DNA from: an uncultured delta proteobacterium | GTDB taxonomy: Bacteria > Desulfobacterota > Desulfobacteria > Desulfobacterales > JAFDCJ01 | Direction: 5' to 3' | DNA length: 64,000 bases | Assembly: GCA_963769935.1 (NCBI GenBank) | Contig: CAVYNY010000035.1 | Span: 147,676 to 211,675, forward strand | Shown: positions 29,158 through 55,051 of the stretch, in pieces | How the letters are laid out: the number at the start of each line of letters is the position of its first letter | How positions within the stretch are numbered: the first letter of the stretch is position 1 | Position numbers and translations under genes: made by a program | The notes under the pieces: generated by a model | Seen by the model: the letters and a program-made list of their open reading frames with translations, nothing else | The model's database searches: none | Told to the model about the DNA's origin: nothing

Positions 29158-29216
29158 ACACCATCGCTCCTTTTTTAGTATAGCATTGAAAACCTGGTCC
29201 TATGGGCCAGGCTTCA

Positions 29217-30323: not shown

Positions 30324-30375
30324 CTTCACACCTCCTCTATTTTTCGTGATACAAAGACCAATCCGGACGAGCCGG

Positions 30376-30515
30376 AATTGAAGATTGGAGATTGCAAATT
30401 GAATATTTGTGGATGTCACTCGCGTAGCGCAGGCGCCGCGTGTCGCTCCGTCTTTTTTAAAATATAATCCGCCGCGGACCATAAATATTCAATATTCATT
30501 CGAAACTATTCAATC
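30376..30515. mobile_element. MITE-like element family B (ATTGAAGATTG.../...AATATTCAAT ends)
   Basis: Inverted heptamer-array ends and an internal TGTCGCT motif; related copies at 42737, 50321, 51286 and a partial copy at 40166. Confidence 0.6.
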
Positions 30516-30516
30516 T

Positions 30517-30870: not shown

Positions 30871-30927
30871 GGCCGCTTTTCAGGTCGGCGGCTGGGCTGA
30901 CACCTGACACGTGTAACCTGCAATTAT

Positions 30928-31956: not shown

Positions 31957-31986
31957 AAACTTGCTCCTTGTATTTGCTGTTTGTGT

Positions 31987-33018: not shown

Positions 33019-33031
33019 AATTGGGCGCTCC

Positions 33032-34579: not shown

Positions 34580-34619
34580 TTTTCCGATCTCCCCAATTTT
34601 ATGGTTATTTCAATCGATT

Positions 34620-35402: not shown

Positions 35403-35493
35403 TGAGTTACTCCCATCGACCCGGTTACAGCTTCAGGGTCGAATTTGTGACCAATGCAAGCCGGGCAGTTAATTCTAGTTATTGAATACAGAA

Positions 35494-35692
35494 GGTTTCA
35501 GGTGTCGGGTTTCAGGTGTCAGCAATGGATTAAGGTCAAAGGATAAAGGCTAAAGGTAAAAGGATATAGCCGTAAAGCTGAAGGCGAGTGGTACGTAGGG
35601 ATGGACAACGATCCGATGTGTTGCTTTCCAGCTTGCAGGCCGCCCAGCCTCTAATTTCTGACATCTGTCTTCTGTCCTCTGACACCTGAAAC
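35494..35692. mobile_element. MITE-like element family A, copy 1
   Basis: Ends GGTTTCAGGTGTC...GACACCTGAAAC; its reverse complement aligns internally with 40204-40364. Confidence 0.7.
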
Positions 35693-35768
35693 TCTATCCC
35701 TTAAGTTTAGGTATAATTTTAGGATAAAAATGAAGCAATGATTATGTTTGTTTTTCCCCCACGCAGCG

Positions 35769-37307: not shown

Positions 37308-37351
37308 TTAGCATCCTCCTTGGAAAATCTTTATCTGAATAGACAAATCCT

Positions 37352-37423
37352 GGCGGGGGTAAACCCCGCCGCTACCTGGTAGGTAGGATATCTTGTGCAG
37401 GGGCGGGGTTTATCCCCGCCCGC
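37352..37423. repeat. Pair of REP-like palindromes
   Basis: GGCGGGGGTAAACCCCGCCGCTAC and GCAGGGGCGGGGTTTATCCCCGCCCGC. Confidence 0.7.
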
Positions 37424-37539
37424 AAGCGCTAAGTTGCTTTTAAAAGATGTTCTTTTTTGGATATAAACCGCCACACTCCTCGAAACCCTGAACGCTGAAC
37501 CCTGAATGCTGAATCAATGAACCCTGAACGACATAAACC

Positions 37540-38544
37540 TCAGCTGCGTTTTCTGGTATGGCGGATGTGATCCAGGGAAACCGCGCCCAGCAGGATGCCG
37601 CCGCGGATCAGATCCTGCCAGTAGGGGGAGACATCCAGCAGAACCATCGAGCCGGTGATGGTCTGCAGCAGGGCAATGCCCAGAATCGAGCCCAGCACCG
37701 TTCCCACGCCGCCGGTCAGGCTGGCCCCGCCGATGACCACCGCCGAGATGGCGTTCAACTCCAGACCGATGCCGAAGCCCGGAATCGAGGCGCCGAAGCG
37801 CGACATGTAAACGATGCCGGCCAGCCCGGATAGGGTGGAGCACAATATGCAGGTGACGATCTTCACCCGGTGGGTTTTGATGCCGGAAAAAATCGCGGCC
37901 TTTTCGTTGCTGCCGGTATAAAACACCTTGCGTGCCAGCGACGATTTGCGCATTAAATAATCGCTGATCACCACAATGACGGCAAAAAGGAATATGGTAA
38001 AGGGGAGACTGTAGACGGTGCCCTGGCCGATGAACTTAAAGGACTTGGGCAGGGCAAACAGCGACAGCGGCGTGCCCTGGGTGATCACAAAACACAACCC
38101 CCGTGCAATGCCCATAAACGCCAGGGTCGTTATGAAAAAATTCAACCCGACTTTGGTGACAAAGATGCCGATTGTAAAGCCGATCAGGCTGCATATCACG
38201 ATGCCGATCAGGCTGGCCAGCCAGGGATCGATTCCCAGCAGAAAAAGCTTGCCGCCAATGACCATCGCCAGGCACATCACCGAGCCCACCGACAAGTCAA
38301 AGCCGCCGACCACCAGGATCAGCGTCATGCCCACCACGACGATGCCCTCGGTGGAAAACGACAGCAGGATGGCTTTGATGTTGGGCCAGGTTAAAAAATA
38401 CGGTGACACAAAACTCATGATGATGCACACCGCCACAATGATCAGTATCAGGGTGCCTTCCCGAAACCCCCGGATAGCCTCGAAAACATTGCTGACCTTG
38501 GCGGTGGATACCTTGTCTGTTGGAACCATGCCGACACTGTCCAT
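37540..38544 (-). CDS. Sugar ABC permease (RbsC-like)
   Basis: GGFDLSVGS, FITTLA, GSNEKAAIFSGI, ELNAISAVVIGG. Confidence 0.93.
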   Translation of the reverse strand: MDSVGMVPTDKVSTAKVSNVFEAIRGFREGTLILIIVAVCIIMSFVSPYFLTWPNIKAILLSFSTEGIVVVGMTLILVVGGFDLSVGSVMCLAMVIGGKLFLLGIDPWLASLIGIVICSLIGFTIGIFVTKVGLNFFITTLAFMGIARGLCFVITQGTPLSLFALPKSFKFIGQGTVYSLPFTIFLFAVIVVISDYLMRKSSLARKVFYTGSNEKAAIFSGIKTHRVKIVTCILCSTLSGLAGIVYMSRFGASIPGFGIGLELNAISAVVIGGASLTGGVGTVLGSILGIALLQTITGSMVLLDVSPYWQDLIRGGILLGAVSLDHIRHTRKRS

Positions 38545-38643
38545 AGTTCAATTCCTTTGATATTGAAATCCTGATCCTGGCTTATGAGTTGGTATCGATC
38601 ATAGTCCCAAGACTCATTACCCCAACACTCCGCCCTTCTTCTT

Positions 38644-40146
38644 TCACACACATATCCCGGAAGCCAGCTGAATGATGCGCTGCTCGGTAATCTGATCGCC
38701 GGTGATGATGTCGCACTGCCGTCCTTCGTGCATCACCAGCACCCGGTCGCACATGCCGATGACTTCCGGCAGCTCCGATGATATCATGATCACGCCGATG
38801 CCCTGTCCGGCCAGTTCGCGCAGCAGGCGATGGATCTCGGATTTGGCGCCCACATCAATGCCGCGGGTGGGTTCATCCATGATGATGACGGCCGGATTGA
38901 TAGACAGCAGCTTGGCGATTAATACTTTTTGCTGATTGCCCCCGCTCAAAGAGGAGACCAGCTGAACCAGGGAATGATATTTGATGTTCAATTTGTCTGC
39001 CAGCCGGCTGGAAAGCTCGCGGGTGAGCTTGCGGTCGACAAACCCCCGGTATGAAACCTGCTTCAGATTCATGGCCGTGATGTTGCTGCCGATGGGCATC
39101 TCCAGAAACAATCCCTCAGATTTGCGGTCTTCGGTCAGATAAACGATTCCCTGCCGGATCGCATCTTCATAGCTGTTCACATTCAGAGGTCGGCCCTTGA
39201 AGACGACCTCGCCGGCTTTTTTAGGATACAGCCCGCAAATGGCCTTGGCCAGCTCGCTGCGCCCGGCACCCACCAGGCCGGAAAATCCCAGAATTTCGCC
39301 CTCAAACAGATCAAAGTTGATGTCGTGGAAGCGACCCTCGTTCGAGAAGCCGCGAATCTGCAGCAGCACATTGGCCGGCTCGGCCGGCTGCTTGGCTTTG
39401 GCCGGGTACAGGTCGCCGATCTCCCGGCCCACCATTTTATTGACCACTTCGGTCGAAGTGGTCTGGTCCACGTCGTAGGTGCCGATATACCGGCCGTCCC
39501 TGAGAACCGACACCCGGTCGCAATGGGCGAAGACCTCCGCCATGCGGTGGCTGATGTAGATAATGCTGATGCCCTGGTCCTTGAGCTTTTTCATGATCTG
39601 AAACAAGGCGTCCGTTTCACTCTCGGTCAACACCGCCGTGGGCTCATCCAGGATCAATATCCGGCAGTCCAGCGTCAGCGCCTTGGCGATCTCCACCACC
39701 TGCTGGTTGGAGATGCTCAATTCGCCGACTTTTTTGTGGGGTTCGATGGGATGCAGGGATTGAAGGGCCCTGGCGGTCTTGGCGTACAGCTCTTTGTAAT
39801 TTACCAGCCACGCCTTGTCGGCATTGATCGAAGACATGTACAGGTTTTCAGCCACCGTGACATCGGGGCAAAGCGCGATTTCCTGGTGGACAAAACCGAT
39901 GCCGAGCCGTTGGGCGGCCAAGGGGTCTTTAATCTCCACTTTGCGGCCGTTGACAAAAATCTCGCCGGCGTCCGGTGTGTAGACGCCGTCAATCACGTTC
40001 ATCAACGTGGATTTGCCGGCGCCGTTTTCGCCCACCACCGCATGAATCTCACCTTTGCGCAGTTGAAAATTCACCTTGGAAAGAGCCTGGGTGCCGGGAA
40101 ACGACTTGTCAATGCCTCTGACTTCTAAAACCAATTCTTCGGTCAA
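38644..40146 (-). CDS. Sugar ABC ATP-binding protein (RbsA-like)
   Basis: GENGAGKST, LDEPT, LSGGNQQKV, DEPTRGIDVGAK. TTG start after a G-rich RBS. Confidence 0.95.
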   Translation of the reverse strand: MTEELVLEVRGIDKSFPGTQALSKVNFQLRKGEIHAVVGENGAGKSTLMNVIDGVYTPDAGEIFVNGRKVEIKDPLAAQRLGIGFVHQEIALCPDVTVAENLYMSSINADKAWLVNYKELYAKTARALQSLHPIEPHKKVGELSISNQQVVEIAKALTLDCRILILDEPTAVLTESETDALFQIMKKLKDQGISIIYISHRMAEVFAHCDRVSVLRDGRYIGTYDVDQTTSTEVVNKMVGREIGDLYPAKAKQPAEPANVLLQIRGFSNEGRFHDINFDLFEGEILGFSGLVGAGRSELAKAICGLYPKKAGEVVFKGRPLNVNSYEDAIRQGIVYLTEDRKSEGLFLEMPIGSNITAMNLKQVSYRGFVDRKLTRELSSRLADKLNIKYHSLVQLVSSLSGGNQQKVLIAKLLSINPAVIIMDEPTRGIDVGAKSEIHRLLRELAGQGIGVIMISSELPEVIGMCDRVLVMHEGRQCDIITGDQITEQRIIQLASGICV

Positions 40147-40203
40147 GAAGATCACCCCCCCCATGAATTGAAGATTGAAGATTGTAAATTTAATATTGTA
40201 ATA

Positions 40204-40364
40204 GGTTTCAGGTGTCAAGTGTCAGAAGACAGATATCAGAAGACAGAGTCCAGAGGCTGGGATGCTGGAAAGCAATACCTCAGATCTTTGTCCATCCCTT
40301 TGTACCGCTCGCCAGCAGCCTTTCGCCTTTTACCTTTATCCTTTGCTGACTGACACCTGAAACC
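40204..40364. mobile_element. MITE-like element family A, copy 2 (inverted relative to copy 1)
   Basis: Perfect terminal inverted repeat GGTTTCAGGTGTCA/TGACACCTGAAACC; core GCTGGAAAGCAA...TTGTCCATCCCT...CTCGCC shared with copy 1. Confidence 0.7.
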
Positions 40365-40373
40365 AGCAGTTAT

Positions 40374-41427
40374 TTACTCTTTGATGCCATTGGTGCCGCG
40401 TCGTTTCAGGTATTTATCCCAGTAAAAGTCGTCGGCATTCTCCTTGGTGACCAGTGCCAGCCCGTTGTCGCAATAGGGGATCTGCATCGGGTTGTAGCCT
40501 TTGCGTTTGTAGTCGTTCATCGGATCGATCATATCCGAATGCTTGGCCAGGTACAAGAACATCATGCCGAAATACCCCTGCACCCCCTGGTCGGGGTTCA
40601 GCGCGCCCCAGATATCGCCTTCCTTGATCATATCCAGAACTTTCTGGTTAACATCGGTGCAAAGAATTTTGATCTTCCCGCCAAGTTCCTTGGCGGCCTG
40701 GGCCGCACCCATGGCCGAGCTGGCTTCGGGCATGAAAATTGCGCCGAGTTCGGGGTGTCCCTGGGCCATGGTCAGGGTCGCCTGATAGGCCTTGTTGGCA
40801 TCCTGGTTGGAAGCGGCGGTGGCAACGACCTTGATGCCCGGCCACTTGGTTTCAATGCGTTTGGTAAATGACTTGACCCGCAGGTCATGATTGTCCTGGC
40901 CGGGGTTTTGGAGGGTCGCCACTTCGCCCTTGCCCCCTAAGTAGTTCCCCTACTTTGTCGGCCGCAAAGTAGCCTTCGCGAACGTTGTCGGAAGTGATAT
41001 AAGATACGCGTTTGCTGTTCGGGGAGTCCGCGGCAAACGTGACCACGGGAATACCCATTTCATAGGCCCGGTTAATGGGTTCAATGAAAGGATCCGGGTT
41101 CATGGGATGCAGGAATATACCGGCCGGCTTTTTGGCCAGGATTTGCTCGAACACGGCCAGTTGTTTATTGACGTCATATTCCGCTGTGCCGGTGTAGACG
41201 GTTTTTACTCCCAGCTGCCAGCCGGCCTGCTTGAACATTTCATAAACCGGAAACCAGTACTCCACGCCCGAAACCATCACACACATGTAATAGGTTTCGT
41301 TCGGATCTCCCTTAAAGGGGTTCTTTGCACGCCAGAATTTTTCCAGCGATGACTGTCCTGCCAGGGTTGCACCTGCGGTGAGAATCATCAGGGAAACGAT
41401 CAGCATTGCTATTACTATTCTTTTCAT
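40374..41427 (-). CDS. Sugar ABC substrate-binding protein, one frameshift at ~40935
   Basis: The two ORFs join into a full paralog of 30928-31956 (…GKGEVATLQNPGQDNHD…). The indel is at or next to a G run. Confidence 0.88.
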
Positions 41428-41750
41428 TGTCTTCCTCCCGTTGTAGTGTTAGTTTTACCTCTTGCTCGTTGCTCTATTATAAACAAAATCTGTCATTCGT
41501 GACGCGGTGGATTTATTAAATCGGGATATCCCGCAATAAAAAAATATCAGCACGCCACTGCTGTCAAATGGATATCACCTCCTTTAATGGCCGGTCTCTG
41601 AGAACTATCTCTCCGATTCCGTCATTGCCGCCGCTTGTCGAAAGCGGCAGGCCAGATTTTATAAAATGGTCTGCTATTTAAAACGCCATTTTATATTTGT
41701 CAATAACCAGACTTTGAACCCGTCTTTGGATGGATCTTCAACTTGCATCT

Positions 41751-42716
41751 TTACCCTTCGACCTTTGTGGTTATCAGCGTGTAAACGGCGACCGTGCCGA
41801 TGAGCACGATGCCTTTGGCAAAAGACTGCCAGTAGGGGGGTATCCATAGAACGGTCATACCGATCGACACGCACATGATGATCAGGGCGCCGACGACCGT
41901 CTTCAACACGGACCCCTCACCGCCGTAAAAACGGGTGCCGCCCAGAAGAATGGCAATGATGGCTTCCAGTTCCATCAGATTGCCGGTCATCGGATCGCCC
42001 ATGGACAGGTAACTTGCTCTGGCTATGCCGCCGATGGCAGAAAGAAAGCCGGTAATCATATACAGCACCCAGATCGTCCCGACAACATTGATGCCGGATA
42101 GTTCCGCCGCCGTCATGTTGCCGCCGATGGCCGCGGTATACTTGCCGAGCACCGTCTTTTTTTGAACAATGACCATGATGACGATGACCGCCACCGCAAC
42201 GTAAAACGCTGCCGGCAGTCCCAGGAACACGGGCGCCCGGGCGAAATCATTGATGCCCGCCGGCATGTTGCCTTTAATCAAGCCGATCTGGCGCGGGGTC
42301 AGGGTCCAGGCAATCCCCCGAAACAGGTACAGGGTCACCAGCGTGGCGATGACGGACACAATGCGCAGCTTCATCACCAGCAGGCCGTTGATGTAGCCCA
42401 TCAAAACCCCCAGTCCCATGGTCAGCAGCGTGCCCCAGAAGAAGCCAAACCCGTTTTTCAGCAGGATGCAATAGACGACACCGCTCAAGCTGACCATGCT
42501 GCCCACCGACAGATCGATCTGAGCGGCGATCATGATGAGGGTGGCGCCGCAGCTGACCAGCAATATCGGTACGGACATTCGCAGAATATTGACAATGTTG
42601 GCCGGATTCAAAAAGTTCATAGACACCGCACTGAACCCGATGACAATCAAAGCCAGCACGAGGAACACAAAGATGTTCTTGAAGGTCGTCCAGGTGAATT
42701 TGCTTTGCATTTCCAT
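41751..42716 (-). CDS. Sugar ABC permease
   Basis: IDLSVGS, GGNMTAAELSGI, ELEAIIAILLGG. Confidence 0.92.
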   Translation of the reverse strand: MEMQSKFTWTTFKNIFVFLVLALIVIGFSAVSMNFLNPANIVNILRMSVPILLVSCGATLIMIAAQIDLSVGSMVSLSGVVYCILLKNGFGFFWGTLLTMGLGVLMGYINGLLVMKLRIVSVIATLVTLYLFRGIAWTLTPRQIGLIKGNMPAGINDFARAPVFLGLPAAFYVAVAVIVIMVIVQKKTVLGKYTAAIGGNMTAAELSGINVVGTIWVLYMITGFLSAIGGIARASYLSMGDPMTGNLMELEAIIAILLGGTRFYGGEGSVLKTVVGALIIMCVSIGMTVLWIPPYWQSFAKGIVLIGTVAVYTLITTKVEG

Positions 42717-42736
42717 AATTAGCGTTCCTCAATGTG

Positions 42737-42858
42737 ATTGAAGATTGAAGATTTGTAGTTGTCGCTTCGCTCCGTCACCTTTTAGATAAATCTTTATAAA
42801 ATCGACCCGCCGCAGGCGGACATTAAATATTCAATTTACAATCTTCAATTTTCAATTC
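42737..42858. mobile_element. MITE-like element family B copy
   Basis: GATTGAAGATTGAAGATTTG...AAATATTCAATTTACAATCTTCAATTTTCAAT. Confidence 0.6.
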
Positions 42859-42861
42859 CGG

Positions 42862-43869
42862 TCATGTTGTTCTGTGGTCCAATGCAAAACGTTGCGATAG
42901 AATCGCGATCAGCGTGATGCCGCCCTTTACGATCGTCTGGATATCCGGCGACAACCCCAGCATGTTCAGCGAGGTGGACACGATGCCGAGGATGAATGCA
43001 CCCACGACGGCGCACATAACTGAGCCGAAACCGCCGAAAATGCTGGTTCCGCCCAGCAGGGTGATTACCAGCGCATCAAATTCAAAACCTTCGCCCAAGC
43101 TGGAAATACCCGCGTTGTGAATGGAACCCATGATGACCCCGATCAGCCCGGCTAGAAATGAACTTGCCAGGTATAGGATCGAAATGTGCCTTTCGACTTT
43201 GATGCCGGAGAGTTTGGCGGCTACCGGATTTGCGCCGATGTAATAGGTCCGGCGGCCGAAGACAGTCTTTTTTTCAATAACCAGCGCTATAATTACCAGT
43301 ATGACCATCAAAATAACCGAAGCATTGACCGTGCCGATCAGAGAGAATTCACCGAATTTTTTGAATACATAAGGCAGGCCGGCGTTGCGCTGCGAGCCCT
43401 GGGTGATAATCAGCGCAATGCCGCGCGCCAGCGACATGGTGCCCAGCGTGACAATAATGGATGCGACTTTCAAGCGGGTGACAAAAAAGGCGTTGATCGC
43501 ACCGATGAACATGCAGCAGACCAGGGTTGCTAAAATGGCAACACCGTAGGTCATGCCGAGCCCGCGGGCCAGTTCCATGCCGGCACCCGTGGGGGACTGG
43601 CAGAAATAGGCCGACAGGACGGCGCCCAAACCGACGATTCCGCCGACCGACAGGTCGAAATTGCCGCTGATTAAAAGAAACGTTACGAAAATTGACAGAA
43701 TGATAAGTTCCGCCTGCTGTGAAAGCTGATTTGAGATGGTATGGATATCAAAAAACCGGGGTACAAATCCGGATGCCGCGATGAAGAAAATGATCAACAC
43801 GCCGAACATGGATAAAACAATAAACGATTCATTGCTCATTTTTCCAATGGCTGATTTTTGTTCCGGCAT
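42862..43869 (-). CDS. Sugar ABC permease
   Basis: GNFDLSVGG, GANPVAAKLSGI, EFDALVITLLGG. Confidence 0.92.
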   Translation of the reverse strand: MPEQKSAIGKMSNESFIVLSMFGVLIIFFIAASGFVPRFFDIHTISNQLSQQAELIILSIFVTFLLISGNFDLSVGGIVGLGAVLSAYFCQSPTGAGMELARGLGMTYGVAILATLVCCMFIGAINAFFVTRLKVASIIVTLGTMSLARGIALIITQGSQRNAGLPYVFKKFGEFSLIGTVNASVILMVILVIIALVIEKKTVFGRRTYYIGANPVAAKLSGIKVERHISILYLASSFLAGLIGVIMGSIHNAGISSLGEGFEFDALVITLLGGTSIFGGFGSVMCAVVGAFILGIVSTSLNMLGLSPDIQTIVKGGITLIAILSQRFALDHRTT

Positions 43870-45353
43870 TATTCGCCTCCCGTGCAAATATGGAGCAGTT
43901 TTTCACTGTCGATATCCCGGCAGTTGTCCAGTCCCGCTCTCAGGTTCCCGTCATAGAGCAGAAAGATCCGATCGCACATGTTCATGATTTCCGGCAATTC
44001 GGAGGAGCAGAAGATGATGGACTTGCCCTCCTGTGATAACTGGCGCACGATTTTGTAAATCTCGCTTTTGGCCCCCACATCGACCCCGCGGGTCGGCTCA
44101 TCCAGGATGAGCAGATCCGCTTCGGCAAAAAGGCACTTGGCAAAGACGACTTTTTGCTGGTTCCCGCCCGAGAGTTTGGCAACTTCTTTTTCGGCGCTGC
44201 TGGTCATGATAGCCAGGCGCTTGATGAAGTCCAGGGTGGCGTGCAGATCTTGGCGGCTGTTGATAAAACCCATCTTTGAAATTTTGCGCATGTTCATGAC
44301 GGGGATATTGCTTCTGATCGTCAGGAGCGTGAAAAGGCCCTGCGATCTTCTTTCTTCCGGCACCATCGCGATGCCCGCGCGGATCACCTTGTCCGGCAAA
44401 TGTTCAAGCTTTTGGCCTTTGAAAATAATCTCGCCCGTGTATTTGTCCGCGCCGTATATGGCCCGGGCCAGCTCGGTCTTGCCGGCACCCACCAACCCGT
44501 AAAACCCCACAATTTCGCCGCGCTTTACCTCGAAGGAAATATCCTTCAGTTTTTTGGTGCTCAGATTTTTTACGACCAGCAGGTTGGCGGCATCGGTCAG
44601 GTCCCTGGCAACGTATTGCTCGTAGACCGTCTTGCCGATCATCAGTTTGATGAGCTCACCGCGGTCTTTTACCTCGGTGATCGGCTTGGTGTCGATATGC
44701 TTTCCGTCCCGCAAAACCGTAACATAATCTCCGAGTTCAAAAATTTCGTCCAGGCGATGGGAGATATAGATAACGGTGACGTTTTTCGCTTTAAGGCCCT
44801 TTATAATTTTGAAAAGCCGCTGAATTTCTTCCTCTGAAATGGCTGCCGTCGGCTCATCCATTATAATAACGTCCGATTCCGATGCCACGGCCCTGGCAAT
44901 TTCGACCATCTGCTTCTGGGCCACACTCAACTCCGATACCCGCTGTTTGGGGTTGATGGACGGATCGATGGTTTCCAGCGCATTGACCATTTTTTTGATC
45001 TTGTCGGTTTTGCGCAGAAAACCAAACCAGGTGTCCTCCATGCCGAGGGTCAGGTTTTCTTCAATGGTGAGCTGGTCGACGACATTCAACTCCTGAAACA
45101 GGGTGCTGACGCCTTTTTGTTTGGCATCCCTGGGATTCTGCGCAATATACTCTTTGCCGTTCATGAGGATGGTGCCGGCGGTCCTGGCAAGCGCGCCGGT
45201 GAGGATTTTGATCAGAGTGGATTTGCCGGCCCCGTTTTCTCCGACCAGGCAGTGAACGGTGTTTTTATTGATGTTGAAGCTGACATCATCAACGGCCCGA
45301 ACGCCCGGGAACTCTTTGGTCAGGTTTTTTATCTCCAGCAGAACAGCGCTCAT
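43869..45353 (-). CDS. Sugar ABC ATP-binding protein
   Basis: GENGAGKST, MDEPT, LSGGNQQKV, DEPTRGVDVGAK. Confidence 0.95.
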   Translation of the reverse strand: MSAVLLEIKNLTKEFPGVRAVDDVSFNINKNTVHCLVGENGAGKSTLIKILTGALARTAGTILMNGKEYIAQNPRDAKQKGVSTLFQELNVVDQLTIEENLTLGMEDTWFGFLRKTDKIKKMVNALETIDPSINPKQRVSELSVAQKQMVEIARAVASESDVIIMDEPTAAISEEEIQRLFKIIKGLKAKNVTVIYISHRLDEIFELGDYVTVLRDGKHIDTKPITEVKDRGELIKLMIGKTVYEQYVARDLTDAANLLVVKNLSTKKLKDISFEVKRGEIVGFYGLVGAGKTELARAIYGADKYTGEIIFKGQKLEHLPDKVIRAGIAMVPEERRSQGLFTLLTIRSNIPVMNMRKISKMGFINSRQDLHATLDFIKRLAIMTSSAEKEVAKLSGGNQQKVVFAKCLFAEADLLILDEPTRGVDVGAKSEIYKIVRQLSQEGKSIIFCSSELPEIMNMCDRIFLLYDGNLRAGLDNCRDIDSEKLLHICTGGE

Positions 45354-45382
45354 GGTTGTGCTCCCCCGTTTTATCGTTTCAA

Positions 45383-45412
45383 GGGGAGGAAGCCGTGGGG
45401 CGGCTCCCTCCC
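45383..45412 (-). terminator. GC-rich hairpin after the binding-protein gene (partial terminator or mRNA stabiliser)
   Basis: GGGAGGAAGCCG-TGGGG-CGGCTCCCTCCC, between the binding-protein and ATPase genes. Confidence 0.45.
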
Positions 45413-45460
45413 GTCTAAAGATAAATTAAGCGTTAACCCGGATGTGAATTGCTGCCGCGA

Positions 45461-46477
45461 TTAGAATTTAGGCATTTTGGCATTGGCCTGAAACTCATCA
45501 TTGTACCATTTCACGGCCTCATCCGGTGTCATGCTCCAGTAGCCGACCAGGGAGTTGGGGATAAAGATCGGTTTGCGGTTCGCCGGGTCAACCTGCTTGA
45601 TTTTGCCGCTTTTGATGTCGAACAGGTTGTCGATCCGGCCCATGCCGGTTTCACGCGGCGGCAGGCCCATTGACATTTTCAGGGAGGAGCTTGGATCGAA
45701 TACTTCATACAGTTCATTTTCCGGGCAGTCCACACTGATCACGATTTCGGTCAGGGGAACACCGTCTTTCATCTTACCGCGGCCAATCGCTCGCAACCCG
45801 GGCATGGTGCCGTCGGTCAGGTTGGCAGCCTCGGAGTAGATGATGCAAAGGTCCGGATGCGCCTGAACCAGGTCCTGGATGGTTTTCTTGGCCACATCCG
45901 GACCCCGGCTGGAATCAAAGCAGCCCAGATCTACCGCATCGGGGGCCACCGACTTGACGCCCTTGACGAATGGAACCGTGCGTCCCTCTGCAACCGCTTC
46001 ATTGTCCGGCCATCCCAATTCAACCATCACAATGGGTTTGTCGGGATGGGCTTTGATCCACTGCTCGGCCGCAATTTTGCCCATTTTAAAGGAAATTTCC
46101 GCTTCACCGGGTCGGATACACGGAATATCTATGGGCATTTGATCGAAGTAACTGTTGAGAATGATGCCCTTTTTCAGGGCTTCTTCAAGGCCGGGTTTGG
46201 CAGATTCACCCTGCCAGATGTGAAGGGTTGCCATGTTCATGCCCTGGGCAATCATCTGGTCGACGTTGGCGGTCATGGTAGCGACATCGGATTTGCCGTC
46301 AAAGACCTGGACATCGGCACCGTATTTTTCTTTGGCGTATTTTTTGGCCCAGTAGGATTGGGCCTGATGAAAGCCGTTTTTCAGATCGGAGACAAAATAG
46401 GCGATTTTTATGGAATCTGCATAAGCGGTAGCTGCAAAAGCCAACATAACGATGCACACCAATACGATTTTTTTCAT
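45461..46477 (-). CDS. Sugar ABC substrate-binding protein
   Basis: Signal peptide MKKIVLVCIVMLAFAATAYA; periplasmic binding protein type I pattern; first gene of the ABC operon. Confidence 0.82.
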   Translation of the reverse strand: MKKIVLVCIVMLAFAATAYADSIKIAYFVSDLKNGFHQAQSYWAKKYAKEKYGADVQVFDGKSDVATMTANVDQMIAQGMNMATLHIWQGESAKPGLEEALKKGIILNSYFDQMPIDIPCIRPGEAEISFKMGKIAAEQWIKAHPDKPIVMVELGWPDNEAVAEGRTVPFVKGVKSVAPDAVDLGCFDSSRGPDVAKKTIQDLVQAHPDLCIIYSEAANLTDGTMPGLRAIGRGKMKDGVPLTEIVISVDCPENELYEVFDPSSSLKMSMGLPPRETGMGRIDNLFDIKSGKIKQVDPANRKPIFIPNSLVGYWSMTPDEAVKWYNDEFQANAKMPKF

Positions 46478-46765
46478 TTTTCTTTCTCCTTTTGGGGTTG
46501 GGTTGTTTTTCGTTGTTTCTTCCTCCCGCTTGAAATGTGTCTTGCTGATTTCAGCCGCCTCCTTTCTGACGAATTTCCGTCATTGGTTGTGTTTGCATTT
46601 GCATGTGAAAAGGTTCAGCGTTCAGGGTTCAAGGGTTTAAGGTTCAAAGGTTTGGGGCTTCGCCCTTCGAGCTACGACGGGACAAGACGACCCCACACGC
46701 AGGGTTCAGGGTTCGGTTTATATTGTAACGCTATACTGCCAAACCGGTCTTGGTGCAAATGGCAA

Positions 46766-47764
46766 TTACGCTTCCGGCGCTCCCAGCGCTTCGACATCCC
46801 GGCGGATTCGTTTCAGGTCGCCAGCCTCTATCACAAGGTCGCCCGCCTTGACATTGTCCTTGACGTGCGCTGGTTTTCTGGCACCGCACAGGACGAAGGT
46901 GATGCCCTCCTGCGCCATGGTCCAGGCAATCACCAGCTGGGATAATGAGCAATCGTATTTTGACAGCAGATCGGTCCAACCCTCGAGCATATTCAGAACT
47001 TTTTTGCGGTTCACCGGCTGAAACCAGGGAATATTATTGCGGTAAGCACCTTCCGGAAACGTCTGACCCATGCCGATTTTGCCCGTCAGCAAACCCTGCT
47101 CGAGCGGAGAATAGGCCAGCGCGCTGATGCTGTTGGCGTGGCAGTACGGCAGTATTTCTTTTTCGATCTCCCTGTCCAGCATGCTGTATTTGGGCTGAAT
47201 GGCGTCCAGGATGCCGGCGGCCTGGTATTGTTTTATGTGTTCAAGGTCCACGTTGGAGGCGCCGATGGCTCGAATTTTACCTTCTTCTTTGAGCTTCAGC
47301 AGGCATCGCATGGTATCCTCAATAGGATACTTGTCCGGTTCCAGCGACTGCCAGTGGGTGTGGTACAGATCTATATAATCGGTACCCAATCGCTTGAGGC
47401 TGTCCTCGAGTTCTTCCACGATCGTTGCCGGAAGCAGGCAGCGCTTGACATGCTTGTCGCCCATCTCAAAAAATGAAGAGCCTCTGTCATCTTTCCACCA
47501 CAAGCCGCATTTGGTGGATAAAATCACCTTATCCCGTTGTCCCTTGATGGCCTTGCCCACGACCGTTTCACTGTGACCCCAGCCGTAGGCGGGGGCGGTA
47601 TCAATCATGGAAATCCCTGCCGCAATGGCGGCCTGAATGGCCTTGATGGATTGATTGTCGTCTGAATCGCCCCACCAGGGCCCGCCGCCGACCGCCCAGG
47701 TACCGAGCGCGACCGCCGAAGCTGAGATGTTCGTTTTACCCAGGGTTCGATATTGCATTTTCAC
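46766..47764 (-). CDS. Aldo/keto reductase
   Basis: LGTWA, IDTAPAYGWGHSE, STKCG, SLKRLGTDYIDLY, IGASN, AYSPL. Confidence 0.93.
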   Translation of the reverse strand: MKMQYRTLGKTNISASAVALGTWAVGGGPWWGDSDDNQSIKAIQAAIAAGISMIDTAPAYGWGHSETVVGKAIKGQRDKVILSTKCGLWWKDDRGSSFFEMGDKHVKRCLLPATIVEELEDSLKRLGTDYIDLYHTHWQSLEPDKYPIEDTMRCLLKLKEEGKIRAIGASNVDLEHIKQYQAAGILDAIQPKYSMLDREIEKEILPYCHANSISALAYSPLEQGLLTGKIGMGQTFPEGAYRNNIPWFQPVNRKKVLNMLEGWTDLLSKYDCSLSQLVIAWTMAQEGITFVLCGARKPAHVKDNVKAGDLVIEAGDLKRIRRDVEALGAPEA

Positions 47765-49442: not shown

Positions 49443-50291
49443 TTATCCCAGCTGGCTCAGCAGCTTGTCAAGCTCCCGCTCGTCGAGACTGTAGCTGTGC
49501 TGTTCGGTGGGAAACTGACCCGATTCAACCTCGTTGCGAAATTGGGTTATGGCCGAAACGGTGACCTGCTGCAGATCGGCGTAGACTTTCAGAAACCGGG
49601 GCGACAGCTCCTTGAACAGGCCCAACATGTCATGGGTCACCAGGCCCTGTCCATCGCAGTGCACGCCGGAGCCGATGCTGATGACGGGAATTTCCAGGCT
49701 GCGGGTGATTATTTCACCCAGGCTCACGGGCAGGCACTCGATGATCAGCCCAAAGGCCCCGCTTTTGGCCATGGCCAGGGCATCGTTGATCATTTGTTTT
49801 GAAGATTCGGCATCCTTGGCCGGCAGGCTGATTTTGCCGGAAAGCACAATCCGCTGTTTGGTGACCCCGATGTGGCCCAACACGGGAATGCCCGATTCTA
49901 CGATGCCGCGGACAATCTCGGCCGAGCGGGCGGTTCCTTCCAGGTGGACGGCATCCGCCCGGCCCTCCTTCATGATGCGGGCGGCGTTGCCGACCGCTTC
50001 GCTGACGCCGTTGTATGAACCGAACGGCAGGGTCGTCACAACCAGGGCGGATTTGACGCCGTTTCTTACCGCCCGGGTGTGGTAGGTCATTTCATCGATT
50101 GTGACCGAAACCGCTTCGGGACGGCCGTTGCCGATGGTTCCCACCGCATCACTCACCAGGACAATGTCGATTCCAGCCTGGTCCAGAAACGAAGCCATTG
50201 GATAGTCATAAGCCGTGAGGAGCGTTATTTTCCGGTTGCTCCTTTTTTTGCTTTGAAGCGCTGCGACGGTCATTTTAGGACGGGTATTCAT
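49443..50291 (-). CDS. Ketopantoate hydroxymethyltransferase (PanB)-like protein with a divergent active site
   Basis: LTAYDY, GHIG, IECLP, ISIGSG..CDGQ.LV.HDMLG. Has LVSDAVG (vs LVGDSLG), VTTLPF (vs ADLPF) and VHLEG (vs VKIEG). Confidence 0.85.
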   Translation of the reverse strand: MNTRPKMTVAALQSKKRSNRKITLLTAYDYPMASFLDQAGIDIVLVSDAVGTIGNGRPEAVSVTIDEMTYHTRAVRNGVKSALVVTTLPFGSYNGVSEAVGNAARIMKEGRADAVHLEGTARSAEIVRGIVESGIPVLGHIGVTKQRIVLSGKISLPAKDAESSKQMINDALAMAKSGAFGLIIECLPVSLGEIITRSLEIPVISIGSGVHCDGQGLVTHDMLGLFKELSPRFLKVYADLQQVTVSAITQFRNEVESGQFPTEQHSYSLDERELDKLLSQLG

Positions 50292-50320
50292 TGGATGTTC
50301 CTCGGCCGGCCAAGCCGGCA

Positions 50321-50521
50321 TTGAAAATTGAAGATTGTAAACTGAATATTTGTGGCTGTCGCCCCCGCAGCGCCAGCGCTTGCGTGGCGTGTGCGCCGCA
50401 TGTCGCTCCATCCTTAGCAGAAGGGGATCGTATCCTCTCCGAGCCGTAGGATTTACGAGCCGGAGGCTTAAATATTCAATACCTGTTCGCCTCCGGAGGA
50501 TTCAATCGACAATATTCAATC
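50321..50521. mobile_element. MITE-like element family B copy inside the BMC operon
   Basis: ATTGAAAATTGAAGATTGTAAACTGAATATTTG...AATATTCAAT. Confidence 0.6.
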
Positions 50522-50567: not shown

Positions 50568-50903
50568 TTAGACAATAATTTTGGGCAGCAGATCCTCCAC
50601 CATCAGATTGGGGTTCGGCAGCATTTTGACCGACTCGACTTCGCCGACCAGTTTGGCCGCCTTGGCCCCGGCCTCCAGAGCGGTGCGCACCGCTCCCACA
50701 TCGCCCCTCACCATGATCGTCATGTAGCCGCCGCCGATGGCACACCGCTGCGTCAAGACGATATTGGCCGCTTTGGCCATTGCATCCGCCGCCTCGATAC
50801 ATGCCACCAAACCTTTGGTCTCAATCATTCCCAGAGCCCTCATTTCAGGGTCAAGGGCGCCAGCCGCCTGCGAGTTTTGATTTTCCATAATCTTTTTAGC
50901 CAT
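50568..50903 (-). CDS. BMC-H hexameric shell protein
   Basis: ALGMIETKGLVACIEAADAMAKAANI...IGGGYMTIMVRGDVGAV. Confidence 0.95.
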   Translation of the reverse strand: MAKKIMENQNSQAAGALDPEMRALGMIETKGLVACIEAADAMAKAANIVLTQRCAIGGGYMTIMVRGDVGAVRTALEAGAKAAKLVGEVESVKMLPNPNLMVEDLLPKIIV

Positions 50904-50906
50904 GAT

Positions 50907-51197
50907 TTATTCCTTTCTGTAACGTATTTTATCATCGTATTGAAGCGAGTCTAATATGCCGACAATCGCGGCATCAACCGGCGAGTTCTTGTAATCCGTG
51001 GCCAGGCGGGCTGAGCTTCCCCGGCTGACCATGACCAGTTCACCCGGCCCCGAACCGACCAGGTCAACAGCCAGCAAAGGATCTCCGCTGATGTCCCCAT
51101 CGATATTGGTCGGGCAGATAATTAATATTTTTGTAGAGCTCAGCGCCGCATGTTTGACGGTTGCCACTGCCGTGCCCATAACCTTAGCGATTATCAT
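50907..51197 (-). CDS. BMC-P vertex protein (EutN/CcmL family)
   Basis: MIIAKVMGTAVATVKH...AVDLVGSGPGELV...GSSAR...PVDAAIVGILD. Confidence 0.95.
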   Translation of the reverse strand: MIIAKVMGTAVATVKHAALSSTKILIICPTNIDGDISGDPLLAVDLVGSGPGELVMVSRGSSARLATDYKNSPVDAAIVGILDSLQYDDKIRYRKE

Positions 51198-51285
51198 GGA
51201 TGACCTCATTTCATATGTTACGGTTAGTTTTAATTTCTACCAGTTAATGTTTGCTTACCCTAACTCGGAGCCACAGAGGGCGTAG

Positions 51286-51459: not shown

Positions 51460-51801
51460 CTACTGGTTCTTGATGCGCTTAATCCTTTCGACCAGCTTAT
51501 CTACGACCGGCCGGGATTGGGTGGCCGGCTTGCCGGACGCCGCTGCTGTTCTCGCTGCCGGCCGTCTCTGGCATCCCCTGGGTTTGCCGCTGAACGTGTG
51601 TACTCTGCCGACGGATTGGGGACGCGCAGGATTGAATGTCTCCATCGATGCGCCGGACGCTCTTTCCGTTATGCGCAGGCCCAGCATGGCAGCGGTCTGC
51701 TTTGCCAGGTCCGTCAGCACGACGTTTTTATCAACGCAGATCTCACTTTGGCCCTGATCGGCAAAATTTTCAATGTCTTCAGCCGAATAAAAAGTCTTCA
51801 T
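51460..51801 (-). CDS. BMC-associated protein: EutQ-N-terminus-like domain, linker, putative encapsulation peptide
   Basis: FYSAEDIE...ICVDKNVVLTDLAKQTAAMLGLRITE resembles the EutQ N-domain; A/P/R/S-rich linker; terminal amphipathic helix VVDKLVERIKRIK. Confidence 0.65.
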   Translation of the reverse strand: MKTFYSAEDIENFADQGQSEICVDKNVVLTDLAKQTAAMLGLRITERASGASMETFNPARPQSVGRVHTFSGKPRGCQRRPAARTAAASGKPATQSRPVVDKLVERIKRIKNQ

Positions 51802-51834: not shown

Positions 51835-52434
51835 TTAAATGCCCTTTATGGCTTGCACAGCCGCTTCGCGGCCGACCATCACCTCCGAGTCGCTGCCGGC
51901 GATATACAACCGTCCATAGCGTCCGGAAGGCTGATAGTTTACCAGGGTGATGTTGGCCGCCTTTTCCGCTTCGTTGGCCGCCAGCCAGACATAGGCCGCC
52001 GGCGCAATTTCCAGGACGCACAGCGTCTGGCCTGCCAGCAGCAAACCGCCGCGGCTGGTCTGGTTTACCAGCTGAGCTTCGTACGGGTTTACCTTGGAGA
52101 CCATTTTAACGGAGACAACCTCCGGCTTTATGCGGTCGCGCTCAGTCAGGCCAAAACGCCCCAGAGCATTTTGCCCGGCGACCTGAACCGCCTCCTGAAA
52201 GGCGCTGTGAATCTCAAGTGTGCCGTACTCTCTTTCAACCCGCAACAGGCCGGGGCGCACGTCCGCAGTTTTCAAAGCGGTGTCCAGAACCTCGTATACG
52301 TCGCCGGCAGGTGCCAATTCCATAAATACTTCCGCCATGCCTTCCACCGGCACATCGCCCTGCAGCAGGATGCCGGTGAGGGCGGCAAATTGCGGTTGCA
52401 TCGAATCTATCAGAATGTAGGTTCTAAGCTCCAT
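51835..52434 (-). CDS. BMC-T shell protein, double-stacking CcmP/CsoS1D type
   Basis: MELRTYILIDSMQPQFAA...ELAP...VEREYG.LEIH...LEIAPAAY...ANEAEKAA...GRYGRLY. Confidence 0.9.
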   Translation of the reverse strand: MELRTYILIDSMQPQFAALTGILLQGDVPVEGMAEVFMELAPAGDVYEVLDTALKTADVRPGLLRVEREYGTLEIHSAFQEAVQVAGQNALGRFGLTERDRIKPEVVSVKMVSKVNPYEAQLVNQTSRGGLLLAGQTLCVLEIAPAAYVWLAANEAEKAANITLVNYQPSGRYGRLYIAGSDSEVMVGREAAVQAIKGI

Positions 52435-52472: not shown

Positions 52473-52793
52473 TTAATCTGCCAATGACCGGACCACCTTG
52501 CGGTCCCCATTGGGAATGATTGCCTCGGTAAATCGGTGCGGCCGCGCAATGACGTGGCCCGCGATCAATTGACCTGCCTTTTTTGCGGCCGCCACGCCGG
52601 CATCGACCGACGCCTGGACGGCACCGACTTCGCCGCGCACCATAATGGTCACGTATCCGCCTCCGATTTCCTCCCGGCAGGTGATACTGACATTGGCGAC
52701 TTTGGCCATTGCATCCGCCGCCTCGATGGAGGCAACCAGCCCGACGGTTTCGACCATGCCAAGTGCAGTTTTTTGCAAATGCTGTTTTTCCAT
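52473..52793 (-). CDS. BMC-H hexameric shell protein
   Basis: ALGMVETVGLVASIEAADAMAKVANV...IGGGYVTIMVRGEVGAV...HVIARPH. Confidence 0.96.
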   Translation of the reverse strand: MEKQHLQKTALGMVETVGLVASIEAADAMAKVANVSITCREEIGGGYVTIMVRGEVGAVQASVDAGVAAAKKAGQLIAGHVIARPHRFTEAIIPNGDRKVVRSLAD

Positions 52794-52977: not shown

Positions 52978-54051
52978 TTAAATTCCGAGTATCTGGTTGG
53001 CCGCAGCGATACCCGAATTTAAATCGACCCTGTGCCCGAGCCCGGCCAGCGCATTGCCGGCTGCCGTCAATAGCTGAATAACCTTGCCGGAAGAAAATTC
53101 CGAGATCTGGGCCGGGTCGAGATAGAAGGCGCTGTGATCGACTTGGCCGAAGGCTTTGCTCGGCCCGAAAATCCGCTCGATTCCTTTTACGAGGTCGTTG
53201 ACATTGATGCCCTCGGGGGCAAAAATGGCCGTGCTGGTTCCTTGGCAAAATTTTCCGGGGGCATCACAGCCGGGACAATCGGCGCCATCGTTGGTCAGCA
53301 GCAAATCCATCTCGCTGACACCCCAGCGGACCGCTTTGGCGGCCGTCTCGTAGTCGGAAGCATCCGTTTTGCGCGCGGCAGAACCCGGCCGGGGTGCGCC
53401 CCACAGGCGGGCGATCGTCGAACGGATGGCCATGGCCGCTGCGACCGGGTCTTTGGCTGCGTGAATCGCACGCCCGGTAATAAGGGCAGTGACCGGAAGG
53501 CTTTGAAAAAATGGAATGGACTCAAGGGTTATCCCGCCGGTGACCGTAACTTTGTACCCCATGTCGATCAAGCGCTGAATGGTGTCCAAATCGTTTTGAG
53601 ACCACTGGCGGTTGGAGGCCTCCTCGTCCCAACCGCGATGGTATACCATCCATTCGATCCCGACCTGCCGCCATTCCTTGGCGCGGGCGATAATGTCCCG
53701 CACGCCGGTAAGTTCCATCAGCACCGCTTTGCCATATTCATTGGCGGTTTTCAGGGCGGATTCGACGGTGGCCATGGGGGCGCCGCCAATAACCGTCATC
53801 AGGTCCGCTCCGGACTCAAAGGCCATCTTGGCTTCCAGCCAGCCGACGTCGGGCGTTTTAAAGTCGGCCAGAATCAGGTTGTCCGGACAAACCTCGCGCA
53901 CGGCTCTGATGGCGTCCAGCCCGGCGGCCTTGCAAAGGGGGGTGCCGATTTCAAAAATGTCGACGTGCGGCGCCGTTTTGGAGGCTATGGCGATGGCCGG
54001 GGGCAGGGTGATGAAGTCTAACGCAAATTGTAACATTGGAATTGTGCTCAT
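52978..54051 (-). CDS. KGPDC/HPS-family (OMP decarboxylase fold) enzyme fused to an extra ~125-aa C-terminal domain
   Basis: LQFALD, EIGTPL, ADFKTPD (DxKxxD), ELTG, YHRG, VTVTGG, GRAI, ending RLWG as in UlaD/SgbH. A linker follows, then a domain resembling the class V aminotransferase small domain, with CPGC-x6-C. Confidence 0.88.
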   Translation of the reverse strand: MSTIPMLQFALDFITLPPAIAIASKTAPHVDIFEIGTPLCKAAGLDAIRAVREVCPDNLILADFKTPDVGWLEAKMAFESGADLMTVIGGAPMATVESALKTANEYGKAVLMELTGVRDIIARAKEWRQVGIEWMVYHRGWDEEASNRQWSQNDLDTIQRLIDMGYKVTVTGGITLESIPFFQSLPVTALITGRAIHAAKDPVAAAMAIRSTIARLWGAPRPGSAARKTDASDYETAAKAVRWGVSEMDLLLTNDGADCPGCDAPGKFCQGTSTAIFAPEGINVNDLVKGIERIFGPSKAFGQVDHSAFYLDPAQISEFSSGKVIQLLTAAGNALAGLGHRVDLNSGIAAANQILGI

Positions 54052-54088: not shown

Positions 54089-54961
54089 TTAAAGCTGCAT
54101 CCCAATGGGATTGTAATAGGTCCTGAGCGCAGCGGCGGTTGCTTCCAGGTTGCGCTTCAGAGGCCGGCCCAGTTTGAACAAAACTCCCAGATACAATAAA
54201 TCCACCAAGTACAGTTGGCACACCTTGGCGTCGATGGCCCCGCCGTACAGCGGCGTGTCCCTGTATTCGAGGGGTGTGGCCAGGCATATTTCGGCCGTCC
54301 GGGCCAGGGCGGATTCGCGATCACTGGTCAGGGCGATGGTTGTGGCGCCGTTTTTAGCGGCAATCTTAACGGCATCGACCACATGTTTGGTAATGCCGGT
54401 GTTGGAGACGCCGAAAGCCACCATTTTGGGTTTGATCATGGACGCCGAAACGGTCTGCATATAGCCGTCGGCGTAGATCACACAGTTGAGGCCGGCTTTG
54501 GTAAACAGGTGATGGGCGGCGTGAGCAATGATGGCCGAGCCGCCGATGCCGTAAATATAGATTTGCCCGGCACGGGCAATGGCGTCGATGGCGTTGTTCA
54601 TGTCTTCGACATTCAGACTTTGCTGGGTCTTAGCGATGGAGCCGGACAGGGATTCGGACAGCTTGCGGCCGATTTCGGGCGTGGCGTCGCCTTCATGAAT
54701 GGCCGGCGGTATGTTTTTAAATTCATCCACCGGACTTGAAGATGCGGCCATCGATAGTTTGAGGTCCTGAAATCCCTGGAGGCCGATGACCCTGCAAAAG
54801 CGGCTGACCGTTGTTTCGCTGACCTTCAATCTTTTGGCCAATTCCGTTATTGAAAAATCAAGCCGTTCCTGGGCGTGCTGCTGCAGATAGTCCGCAATTT
54901 TTTTCTCTGATTTCCTCAAAATCGAATAATTGGCCTGAAGATGTTGAACGAAATTGTTCAT
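54089..54961 (-). CDS. RpiR/MurR family transcriptional regulator (HTH plus SIS)
   Basis: LRKSEKKIADY...SITELA...VSETTVSRFCR.IG..GFQDLK; YGIGGS, SNTG.T. Confidence 0.95.
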   Translation of the reverse strand: MNNFVQHLQANYSILRKSEKKIADYLQQHAQERLDFSITELAKRLKVSETTVSRFCRVIGLQGFQDLKLSMAASSSPVDEFKNIPPAIHEGDATPEIGRKLSESLSGSIAKTQQSLNVEDMNNAIDAIARAGQIYIYGIGGSAIIAHAAHHLFTKAGLNCVIYADGYMQTVSASMIKPKMVAFGVSNTGITKHVVDAVKIAAKNGATTIALTSDRESALARTAEICLATPLEYRDTPLYGGAIDAKVCQLYLVDLLYLGVLFKLGRPLKRNLEATAAALRTYYNPIGMQL

Positions 54962-55005
54962 AATAATAAGGAAATATTTTTCATAAATAGTAAAAAATAA
55001 AATAA

Positions 55006-55051
55006 TGTAAAAAATTTTTTCCATAATAGACGAGTAAAAACGGACTGTCAA
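55006..55051 (-). promoter_or_regulatory. sigma70 promoter of the BMC operon plus a near-perfect palindromic operator
   Basis: Minus-strand TTGACA (55051-55046)-N17-TATTAT (55028-55023); TGTAAAAAATTTTTTCCA (55006-55023) directly downstream. Confidence 0.65.

Follow-up and report, generated by a model that had tools for sequence, protein, structure and literature searches.

An aminotransferase-derived tail on a KGPDC/HPS-family enzyme probably ties it to an undescribed kind of bacterial microcompartment

Signature enzymes serve to classify bacterial microcompartments (BMCs), and short peptides are regarded as the route by which cargo enters them. The locus described here raises the question of what a whole folded domain, derived from an aminotransferase, is doing at the end of a sugar-phosphate enzyme encoded next to BMC shell genes. 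It lies in a stretch of 64,000 nucleotides from an uncultured delta proteobacterium (contig CAVYNY010000035.1), the whole of which is called the window hereafter, where a gene on the minus strand (52978..54051, 357 aa plus stop) encodes a barrel of the 3-keto-L-gulonate-6-phosphate decarboxylase/hexulose-6-phosphate synthase (KGPDC/HPS) family, a linker and an aminotransferase-derived C-terminal domain (CTD). We propose, with moderate confidence, that this fusion is the lead cargo enzyme of a compact BMC free of aldehyde dehydrogenase (ALDH), in which the barrel took over from the pyridoxal-phosphate (PLP) domain of a former lead enzyme and the tail persisted as a BMC-association module. From the comparison of genomes, the tail probably ties the enzyme to a kind of protein organelle that has not been described.

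The fusion gene and its two domains

The protein is divided into a (beta/alpha)8 barrel of the KGPDC/HPS branch of the orotidine 5'-monophosphate decarboxylase (OMPDC) suprafamily (residues 1-218, 53398..54051), a variable linker rich in Pro, Ala and Arg (residues 219-230, 53362..53397) and the CTD (residues 231-357, 52981..53361), all on the minus strand. The gene starts with the ATG at 54051, preceded by AAGGA at a distance of 9 nt, and most of the homologues are also 357 aa long and share the N-terminus MSTIPMLQ. The linker, GAPRPGSAARKTDASDYE, differs in length and sequence in the alignment of family members and is modelled with a per-residue confidence (pLDDT) below 50; the AlphaFold model of the full-length fusion has a mean pLDDT of 84.5 and a predicted TM-score (pTM) of 0.67. 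A Pfam scan of the fusion protein recognized PF00215 alone, at residues 5-208.

The initial annotation had considered that the fusion might be unique to this contig, as an assembly chimera or a deletion scar. The near-full-length architecture is present in 118 of the 120 protein clusters listed (at least 94% query coverage, 58-97% identity), the remaining two being 273-aa fragments. In a collection with one genome per species, sampled with the two barrel motifs MELTGVRD and VYHRGWDE as seeds, 126 stretches encode a relative of the fusion, and of the best 80 loci, which were kept, 72 have a match that extends through the CTD, the match in the other 8 being confined to residues 1-218/236. Five relatives come from metagenome-assembled genomes labelled Desulfobacterales or 'delta proteobacterium' (83-87% identity), and nearly all others from Chloroflexota, mainly Anaerolineae. 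The fusion is a genuine and widespread architecture, found in at least 72 species genomes of two phyla, and since it is so widespread it is neither a chimera nor a deletion scar. Split open reading frames (ORFs) do exist elsewhere in the window, for example in the gene of a periplasmic binding protein (40374-41427), and one 289-aa protein (P0130), which joins an N-terminal part of aspartate-semialdehyde dehydrogenase (Asd) to the CTD, does look chimeric; but the same length and architecture in so many clusters, genomes and phyla, with both domains and their junction conserved, refute such an origin, or that of a pseudogene, and leave it next to no probability.

The barrel confirms the likeness to UlaD/SgbH that had been noted for the first ~217 residues. 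Its residues 3-218 align with residues 2-216 of E. coli UlaD (1kv8; E 1.5e-49, 42-43% identity), and in Foldseek the full-length model is superposed on the KGPDC structures 1so4 and 1kv8 with a TM of 0.96 and an rmsd of 1.2-1.3 A. The Mg ligands and catalytic residues are kept, E34, D63, K65, D68, E113, H138, T171 and R194 corresponding to E33, D62, K64, D67, E112, H136, T169 and R192 of UlaD, and this set is invariant in the 28 aligned family members. As the initial annotation had stated, the equivalents of E112 and T169 (E113 in ELTG, T171 in VTGG) are of KGPDC type, unlike those of HPS, whereas the position of UlaD R139 is occupied by a Trp (W141, in YHRGWD), equally invariant in 28/28 members. 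We take E112, R139 and T169 to be the positions that distinguish KGPDC from HPS, with which the titles of the PDB entries for E112D/R139V/T169A mutants agree. The HPS-like character that had been read in the N-terminal half is also recovered: residues 1-105 score 89.3 bits against the HPS of M. gastri (3ajx) versus 64.2 against UlaD, whereas residues 106-218 score 95.4 bits against UlaD versus 43.2 against HPS. All NCBIfam matches of the barrel (residues 4-219) remain below their cut-offs, with 207.9 bits versus 294 for the UlaD profile NF009831 and 210.1 versus 250 for the SgbH-type profile NF009832, and the HxlA profile TIGR03128 gives 180.5 bits, under its cut-off of 200. These alignments and scores set the barrel apart as a KGPDC/HPS subfamily of its own, with mixed features and outside both characterized families.

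The genomic surroundings are likewise mixed. UlaE-like epimerase genes flank 9 of the 72 fusion loci, but UlaD has neither a 140-aa tail nor a BMC operon, and the fusion operon has no equivalents of ulaG or ulaF. With HPS (HxlA), the barrel shares the suprafamily and presumably the Mg-enediolate chemistry; genes for 6-phospho-3-hexuloisomerase (PHI), the partner of an HPS/PHI route, adjoin two related loci (L010 and L064) with scores above the curated cut-off, and PHI-like genes were found by tblastn in 4/72 loci, these two included. No PHI above cut-off was found in the window's genome, which speaks against the use of a simple HPS/PHI route by this organism.

The tail had been compared in the initial annotation with the small domain of class V aminotransferases deprived of their PLP domain, and the structural comparisons support this assignment. 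When residues 225-357 were modelled alone (pLDDT 87.2), Foldseek retrieved 2z9u (E 7e-6), followed by 6pk3, 3nnk, 3isl and 3zrr, with TMq values of 0.63-0.70. VIA-align, which is independent of Foldseek, gave Z-scores of 15.0, 14.7, 14.2 and 13.9 with the C-terminal domains of 3zrp, 2z9u, 6pk1 and 3nnk over 118-121 residues, the next tier after these enzymes reaching at most 10.7. In NCBIfam, a weak match to the aspartate-glyoxylate aminotransferase BhcA was obtained (residues 267-354 on positions 296-383 of 395, E 1e-3). According to the model, the CTD is the small domain of an alanine-glyoxylate aminotransferase (AGT)-like class V (fold-type I) enzyme, and it is also homologous in sequence to full-length members of this group that are described below. 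It differs from them by the absence of the PLP-binding large domain with its Schiff-base Lys (no PF00266 match exists in the fusion, where the barrel fills that region) and by the replacement of the Arg of the F-R-V-G motif, presumably the residue that binds the substrate carboxylate in AGT, by Tyr (F-Y-L-D) in each of the 31 full-length fusion CTD rows compared. This Arg is present in the related proteins P0138 and P0141 and is a His in P0145, and the canonical AGT-like enzyme of the window's genome has W-R-V-G. Because the PLP domain is lacking and the Arg is replaced, the CTD is regarded as a non-catalytic remnant. The fold and homology of both domains are established directly.

The microcompartment operon and its linkage to the C-terminal domain

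The fusion opens a run of genes on the same strand in the order fusion, BMC-H, BMC-T, orf113, BMC-P, BMC-H and PanB. In the window these are a first BMC-H shell protein (52473..52793), a tandem-domain, CcmP-like BMC-T (51835..52434; 211 bits for a cut-off of 340), a 113-aa protein of no family, orf113 (51460..51801), a BMC-P (EutN/CcmL) vertex protein (50907..51209), a second BMC-H (50568..50903) and a paralogue of PanB, of the ketopantoate hydroxymethyltransferase family (49443..50291), all on the minus strand. A linkage of the architecture to BMC genes, which the initial annotation had envisaged, was followed by tblastn of the six downstream proteins against the 80 kept loci. Shell genes begin a median of 57 nt after the fusion in 70 of the 72 CTD-bearing loci, and in the two exceptions the contigs end 7 and 57 nt past the fusion. 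The complete set of six downstream genes is present in 57/72 loci; the incomplete ones are explained by contig ends, by a diverged orf113 (L053, L060, L068) or by the absence of PanB despite 8 kb of flanking sequence (L064, L066). The loci L060 and L064 are on one Chloroflexota contig, where two fusion paralogues lie ~7 kb apart; the locus of L060 has the full cassette, and that of L064 has BMC-H, BMC-T and BMC-H only, with E1/E2 genes after it and UlaE-like and PHI genes before it. The BMC locus is the only one in the window's 8.0-Mb genome and in one other genome (G003), and it is therefore regarded as an autonomous organelle locus; among the other genomes checked, three have two BMC loci and one has three.

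The eight orthologues without CTD offer the converse situation. Their barrels are 65-70% identical to the fusion barrel and keep all the catalytic motifs, and none of them (0/8) has any of the six operon genes in at least 1.3 kb of downstream sequence. Their outer flanks are those of the BMC loci, with a short-chain dehydrogenase/reductase (SDR) in 5/8 versus 42/72 loci, a sugar-binding protein in 5/8 versus 33/72 and pyruvate dehydrogenase (PDH)-like E1/E2 genes (2-oxoacid dehydrogenase) in 3/8 versus 23-24/72, which indicates that the CTD, the shell genes and PanB act as one cassette, set in a sugar-catabolic neighbourhood that both kinds of locus otherwise share. Conservation of the operon and the joint occurrence and joint loss of CTD and BMC genes are direct observations.

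In a quick, provisional maximum-likelihood tree of 82 barrels (E. coli UlaD as root, SH-aLRT support only, many forks open), the eight CTD-less rows occupy three or four separate positions within the CTD-bearing clade: L080 and L073 each stand alone, L074, L075, L076 and L079 are placed beside L015, and L077 with L078 is the sister group of L006 with L063 (99% support). This scatter implies that gain or loss of the CTD went together with that of the BMC genes on more than one occasion. The same tree groups the window with the five Desulfobacterales sequences (100%), and this group is nested in a Chloroflexota clade of 13 rows (97%). The gene directly upstream of the fusion encodes a regulator of the RpiR/HexR family (HTH_6 and SIS domains, 54089..55051, minus strand), conserved at 81-85% in 5/5 of the Desulfobacterales relatives, and the Chloroflexota loci have a SorC/DeoR-type regulator in place of the RpiR type. 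The nesting of the sequences, together with this difference in regulator, suggests that the whole BMC cassette moved horizontally into the Desulfobacterales.

The CTD contains a loop with three Cys, DGADCPGCDAPGKFC (residues 255-269, 53245..53289), in which C259, C262 and C269 are invariant in 36/36 CTD rows, with D255, G256 and D263 also conserved nearby, and which is a candidate metal site modelled by AlphaFold with low confidence. The initial annotation had regarded the CPGCDAPGKFC segment as an insertion into the aminotransferase domain. This holds in so far as the loop is ~10 residues longer than in the canonical AGT-like aminotransferase of the window's genome, which has no such Cys; it was not inserted at the fusion, however, being already present in the donor aminotransferases, which are a rare subfamily. 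An exhaustive HMMER search with the CTD in 1.84 billion representative proteins gave only 25 matches, mostly whole or fragmentary copies of the fusion. The others include two full-length Aminotran_5 proteins, P0138 (411 aa) and P0145 (424 aa), and a fragment, P0141, all with an AAKAIR...CPGCDSPxRxC stretch within their own C-terminal domains. Long repeat proteins among the matches are not relatives, to judge from the two that were scanned (P0135, a polyubiquitin, and P0142, with a Pfam profile unrelated to the CTD), and P0130 was discarded as a third CTD architecture, being a single representative whose CTD lacks the first helix and probably an assembly chimera.

A scan of metagenomes with the aminotransferase alignment gave two loci with genomic context, L081 and L082, and both are BMC loci. 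L082 has the gene order of the window with the full-length aminotransferase replacing the fusion, followed by BMC-H (67% identity to that of the window), BMC-T (64%), an orf113-like gene (38%), BMC-P (54%) and BMC-H (55%). In L081 the order is orf113-like gene, aminotransferase, BMC-P, BMC-H and PanB (57%), with a EutJ-like gene close by. The family hints for the two aminotransferases, pyridoxamine-pyruvate and aspartate-glyoxylate transaminases, are both far under cut-off. That aminotransferases occupy the same slot is seen directly in these loci, and judged by their gene content L081 and L082 are a sister BMC type with the same chassis of shell, orf113 and PanB and an aminotransferase with the CPGCDSPxRxC loop as lead enzyme. 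As full-length enzymes in the same slot carry the CPGCDxPxxxC loop, the loop was inherited and predates the fusion. The simplest history that these sequences allow is the replacement of the PLP domain of the lead enzyme by the barrel, with retention of the small domain.

Possible roles of the tail

For the tail, the initial annotation had envisaged oligomerization, shell docking or metal/redox sensing, on an enzyme that would have a new substrate; the comparison of genomes ties the domain to the BMC. Taken together, these data are in agreement with a mechanism in which the barrel would be a Mg-dependent sugar-phosphate enzyme working through an enediolate intermediate, and the CTD the inactive remainder of a class V aminotransferase once resident in the same BMC chassis. 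The barrel would have taken the place of the PLP domain, and the small domain with its three-Cys loop would have been kept for its tie to the organelle. The physical docking, the binding of a metal, the partner and the substrate are what we infer: most likely the CTD would dock to orf113 or to the shell, and a possible metal site could be formed by the three Cys of the CTD and completed by an invariant Cys of orf113. In the 67 homologues of orf113, a conserved N-terminal domain of ~45 aa is followed by a Pro/Ala-rich linker and a C-terminal amphipathic helix, and the motif K-P-x-G-C77 has its Cys in 67/67 and a His two residues further on in 56/67. A protein-atlas search with orf113 returned hypothetical clusters only, plus a sub-threshold lead to a EutQ fragment at 0.83. 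On these sequence features orf113 may be a BMC adaptor, and an intermolecular metal site made of the three CTD Cys and the orf113 Cys is our conjecture. In BMC-T, too, a Cys is invariant (C139, in T-L-C-V-L-E, 71/71 homologues).

The favoured reading, that of a module associating the enzyme with the organelle, has to be weighed against several points. The tie between CTD and BMC is one of genomic linkage, and the CTD is unlike a canonical encapsulation peptide (a terminal amphipathic helix of ~18 aa on a flexible linker), being a folded alpha/beta domain of ~125 aa. The aminotransferase-type loci with genomic context number only two, and exceptions to the linkage could sit among the 46 relatives outside the best 80. 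The tree comes from a quick search, with SH-aLRT as its sole support and many of its forks open. PanB, the second enzyme, has no BMC-specific extension that would account for its encapsulation. Furthermore, the CTD-coding DNA adjoins the shell genes, so that both could go in a single deletion even if their functions were not coupled, and this adjacency may account in part for the three or four co-losses.

The last point also serves an explanation in which the CTD is an accessory of the enzyme itself, acting within the chain or in oligomerization as a lid, a stabilizer or a means of higher-order assembly, and in which the link to the BMC reflects only shared descent and adjacency. By analogy with the matched structures, where the class V small domain generally packs on the large, catalytic domain of the same chain, the CTD might likewise cover or stabilize the barrel, and the pTM of the full-length model leaves the relative placement of the two domains unsettled. 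However, shell genes accompany all of the 70 assessable CTD-bearing genes and none of the 8 that lack the CTD; the CTD-less barrels, with their motifs and flanks intact, indicate that the barrel does not need the CTD; and within this chassis the small domain also occurs attached to an unrelated catalytic domain, the PLP domain. We consider such an accessory role rather unlikely. A further possibility would give the three-Cys loop a sensing role, for metal or redox state (Zn, Fe-S or a CxxC disulfide), by which it would switch the activity of the enzyme inside the organelle and not be concerned with docking. The strict conservation of the three Cys and their neighbours would suit it, and so would the low AlphaFold confidence in the loop, as expected of a site that requires a ligand; but the presence of the loop on full-length aminotransferases makes a sensor tuned to one enzyme less likely, and the operon encodes no PduS, ferredoxin or other redox partner. 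This sensor is in our view quite improbable; it would be compatible with docking, and a metal could bridge the loop to C77 of orf113. An association module on the cargo enzyme remains the reading that we retain.

The comparison with described systems also bears on this reading. In the text of the SPU6 DERA study (PMC11585597), an N-terminal extension of ~70 residues is presented as a BMC cargo-targeting device. The fusion resembles this extension and the encapsulation peptides in that the appendage is found only on the BMC-linked copies of the enzyme and follows a variable linker, but here it is C-terminal and consists of a whole folded domain of 125 aa, taken over from another enzyme and provided with a Cys3 loop. 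As far as the text of the 2021 BMC catalogue goes (Sutter et al. 2021, PMC8217296), the SPU6 and BUF3 types share the host class Anaerolineae with the fusion operon; SPU6 is described there, like the fusion operon, with a double-stacking-type BMC-T and a short protein (~130 aa in SPU6) without Pfam family, and BUF3 likewise without aldehyde dehydrogenase and with a pfam00266 aminotransferase. On the same text, the differences are that SPU6 is defined by AldDh, DERA (PF01791) and RpiB (PF02502), none of which is found in the fusion operon or among its neighbours in the window, that the BUF3 aminotransferase is described with an N-terminal extension and within a different enzyme set, and that the signature genes of the fusion operon are PF00215 and PF02548. 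Lacking aldehyde dehydrogenase, DERA and RpiB, the operon falls outside the SPU6 type as that catalogue defines it. The main text and the readable supplements of the catalogue contain no mention of pfam00215, pfam02548, OMPdecase or pantoate, although two large archives outside this comparison may list such loci, for example among the SPU6 'duplicate sets'. A literature search found no description of the fusion operon or of such a domain as a BMC appendage, and the operon is apparently a new BMC type, not described in the literature searched.

Neighbouring genes, candidate chemistry and significance

The PanB of the operon passes the curated cut-offs (277.7 versus 207.55 for TIGR00222, 299.3 versus 272 for NF001452) and is the third panB of the window's genome. 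The long ORF 49443-50411 is probably over-extended; its Met41, which lines up with the starts of the homologues, is the likely start. Compared with the two housekeeping copies, conserved active-site motifs diverge: GDSLGM is changed to SDAVGT, GDMPF to TTLPF, KLEGG to HLEGT and TPQ to TKQ, and from these substitutions the BMC PanB may not be a normal ketopantoate hydroxymethyltransferase. Its C-terminal helix (ELDKLL) was rejected as an encapsulation peptide, both housekeeping paralogues having the same tail.

Around the window's locus and the related ones, the flanking families include sugar ABC transporters, SorC or RpiR regulators, SDR, SMP-30 lactonase and FGGY kinases, and LsrF-like PF01791 aldolase genes flank 6 of the 72. 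In the window, the region 28282-47764 (minus strand) encodes an SMP-30 lactonase, a glycerol-dehydrogenase-like Fe-ADH, a SnoaL-like protein, an MtaA/CmuA-like URO-D family protein, two FGGY kinases, a HAD hydrolase, ABC transporters and a YdjG-like aldo-keto reductase, and several of these sugar-catabolic families also flank the CTD-less orthologues. Within its ABC-transporter cluster, the binding-protein gene mentioned above is a Peripla_BP_4 sugar-binding protein divided into two overlapping ORFs on the minus strand, which cover profile positions 5-122 and 130-251, and it looks like a frameshift or a pseudogene. By their family content, the flanks point to the catabolism of sugar or sugar-acid phosphates.

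One scheme for the chemistry of the organelle would suit both lead enzymes: a small aldehyde would be set free either through retro-aldol cleavage by the barrel or through transamination of an amine by the aminotransferase, and the PanB-like enzyme would condense this aldehyde onto a 2-oxo acid. We put this scheme forward tentatively and think it more probably wrong than right. A bolder version, which we hold to be improbable, would place the operon in a new family of ALDH-free BMCs, with a PanB-type aldehyde-handling core, interchangeable aldehyde-generating lead enzymes on a shared docking domain, a Cys3+Cys metal clamp to orf113 and the confinement of a C1 aldehyde (formaldehyde); the barrel would then release formaldehyde or another small aldehyde by a retro-aldol reaction, and the class V aminotransferase would be the alternative lead. 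If this were true, it would be the first natural formaldehyde-confining organelle, together with a ready-made targeting tag of domain size.

In at least 72 species genomes, mostly of Anaerolineae, the operon pairs a KGPDC/HPS-family barrel with PanB, neither of which has been reported in BMCs, and its chemistry may reveal a new confined intermediate. The exchange of the catalytic domain with conservation of the folded tail seems to represent a principle of targeting or assembly at the level of domains; if the docking is true, this domain of 125 aa would offer a new way to load engineered shells. Finally, matched loci of related genomes, some of which have the BMC cassette and some of which lack it, constitute a natural experiment on the benefit of encapsulation for a sugar-phosphate pathway.

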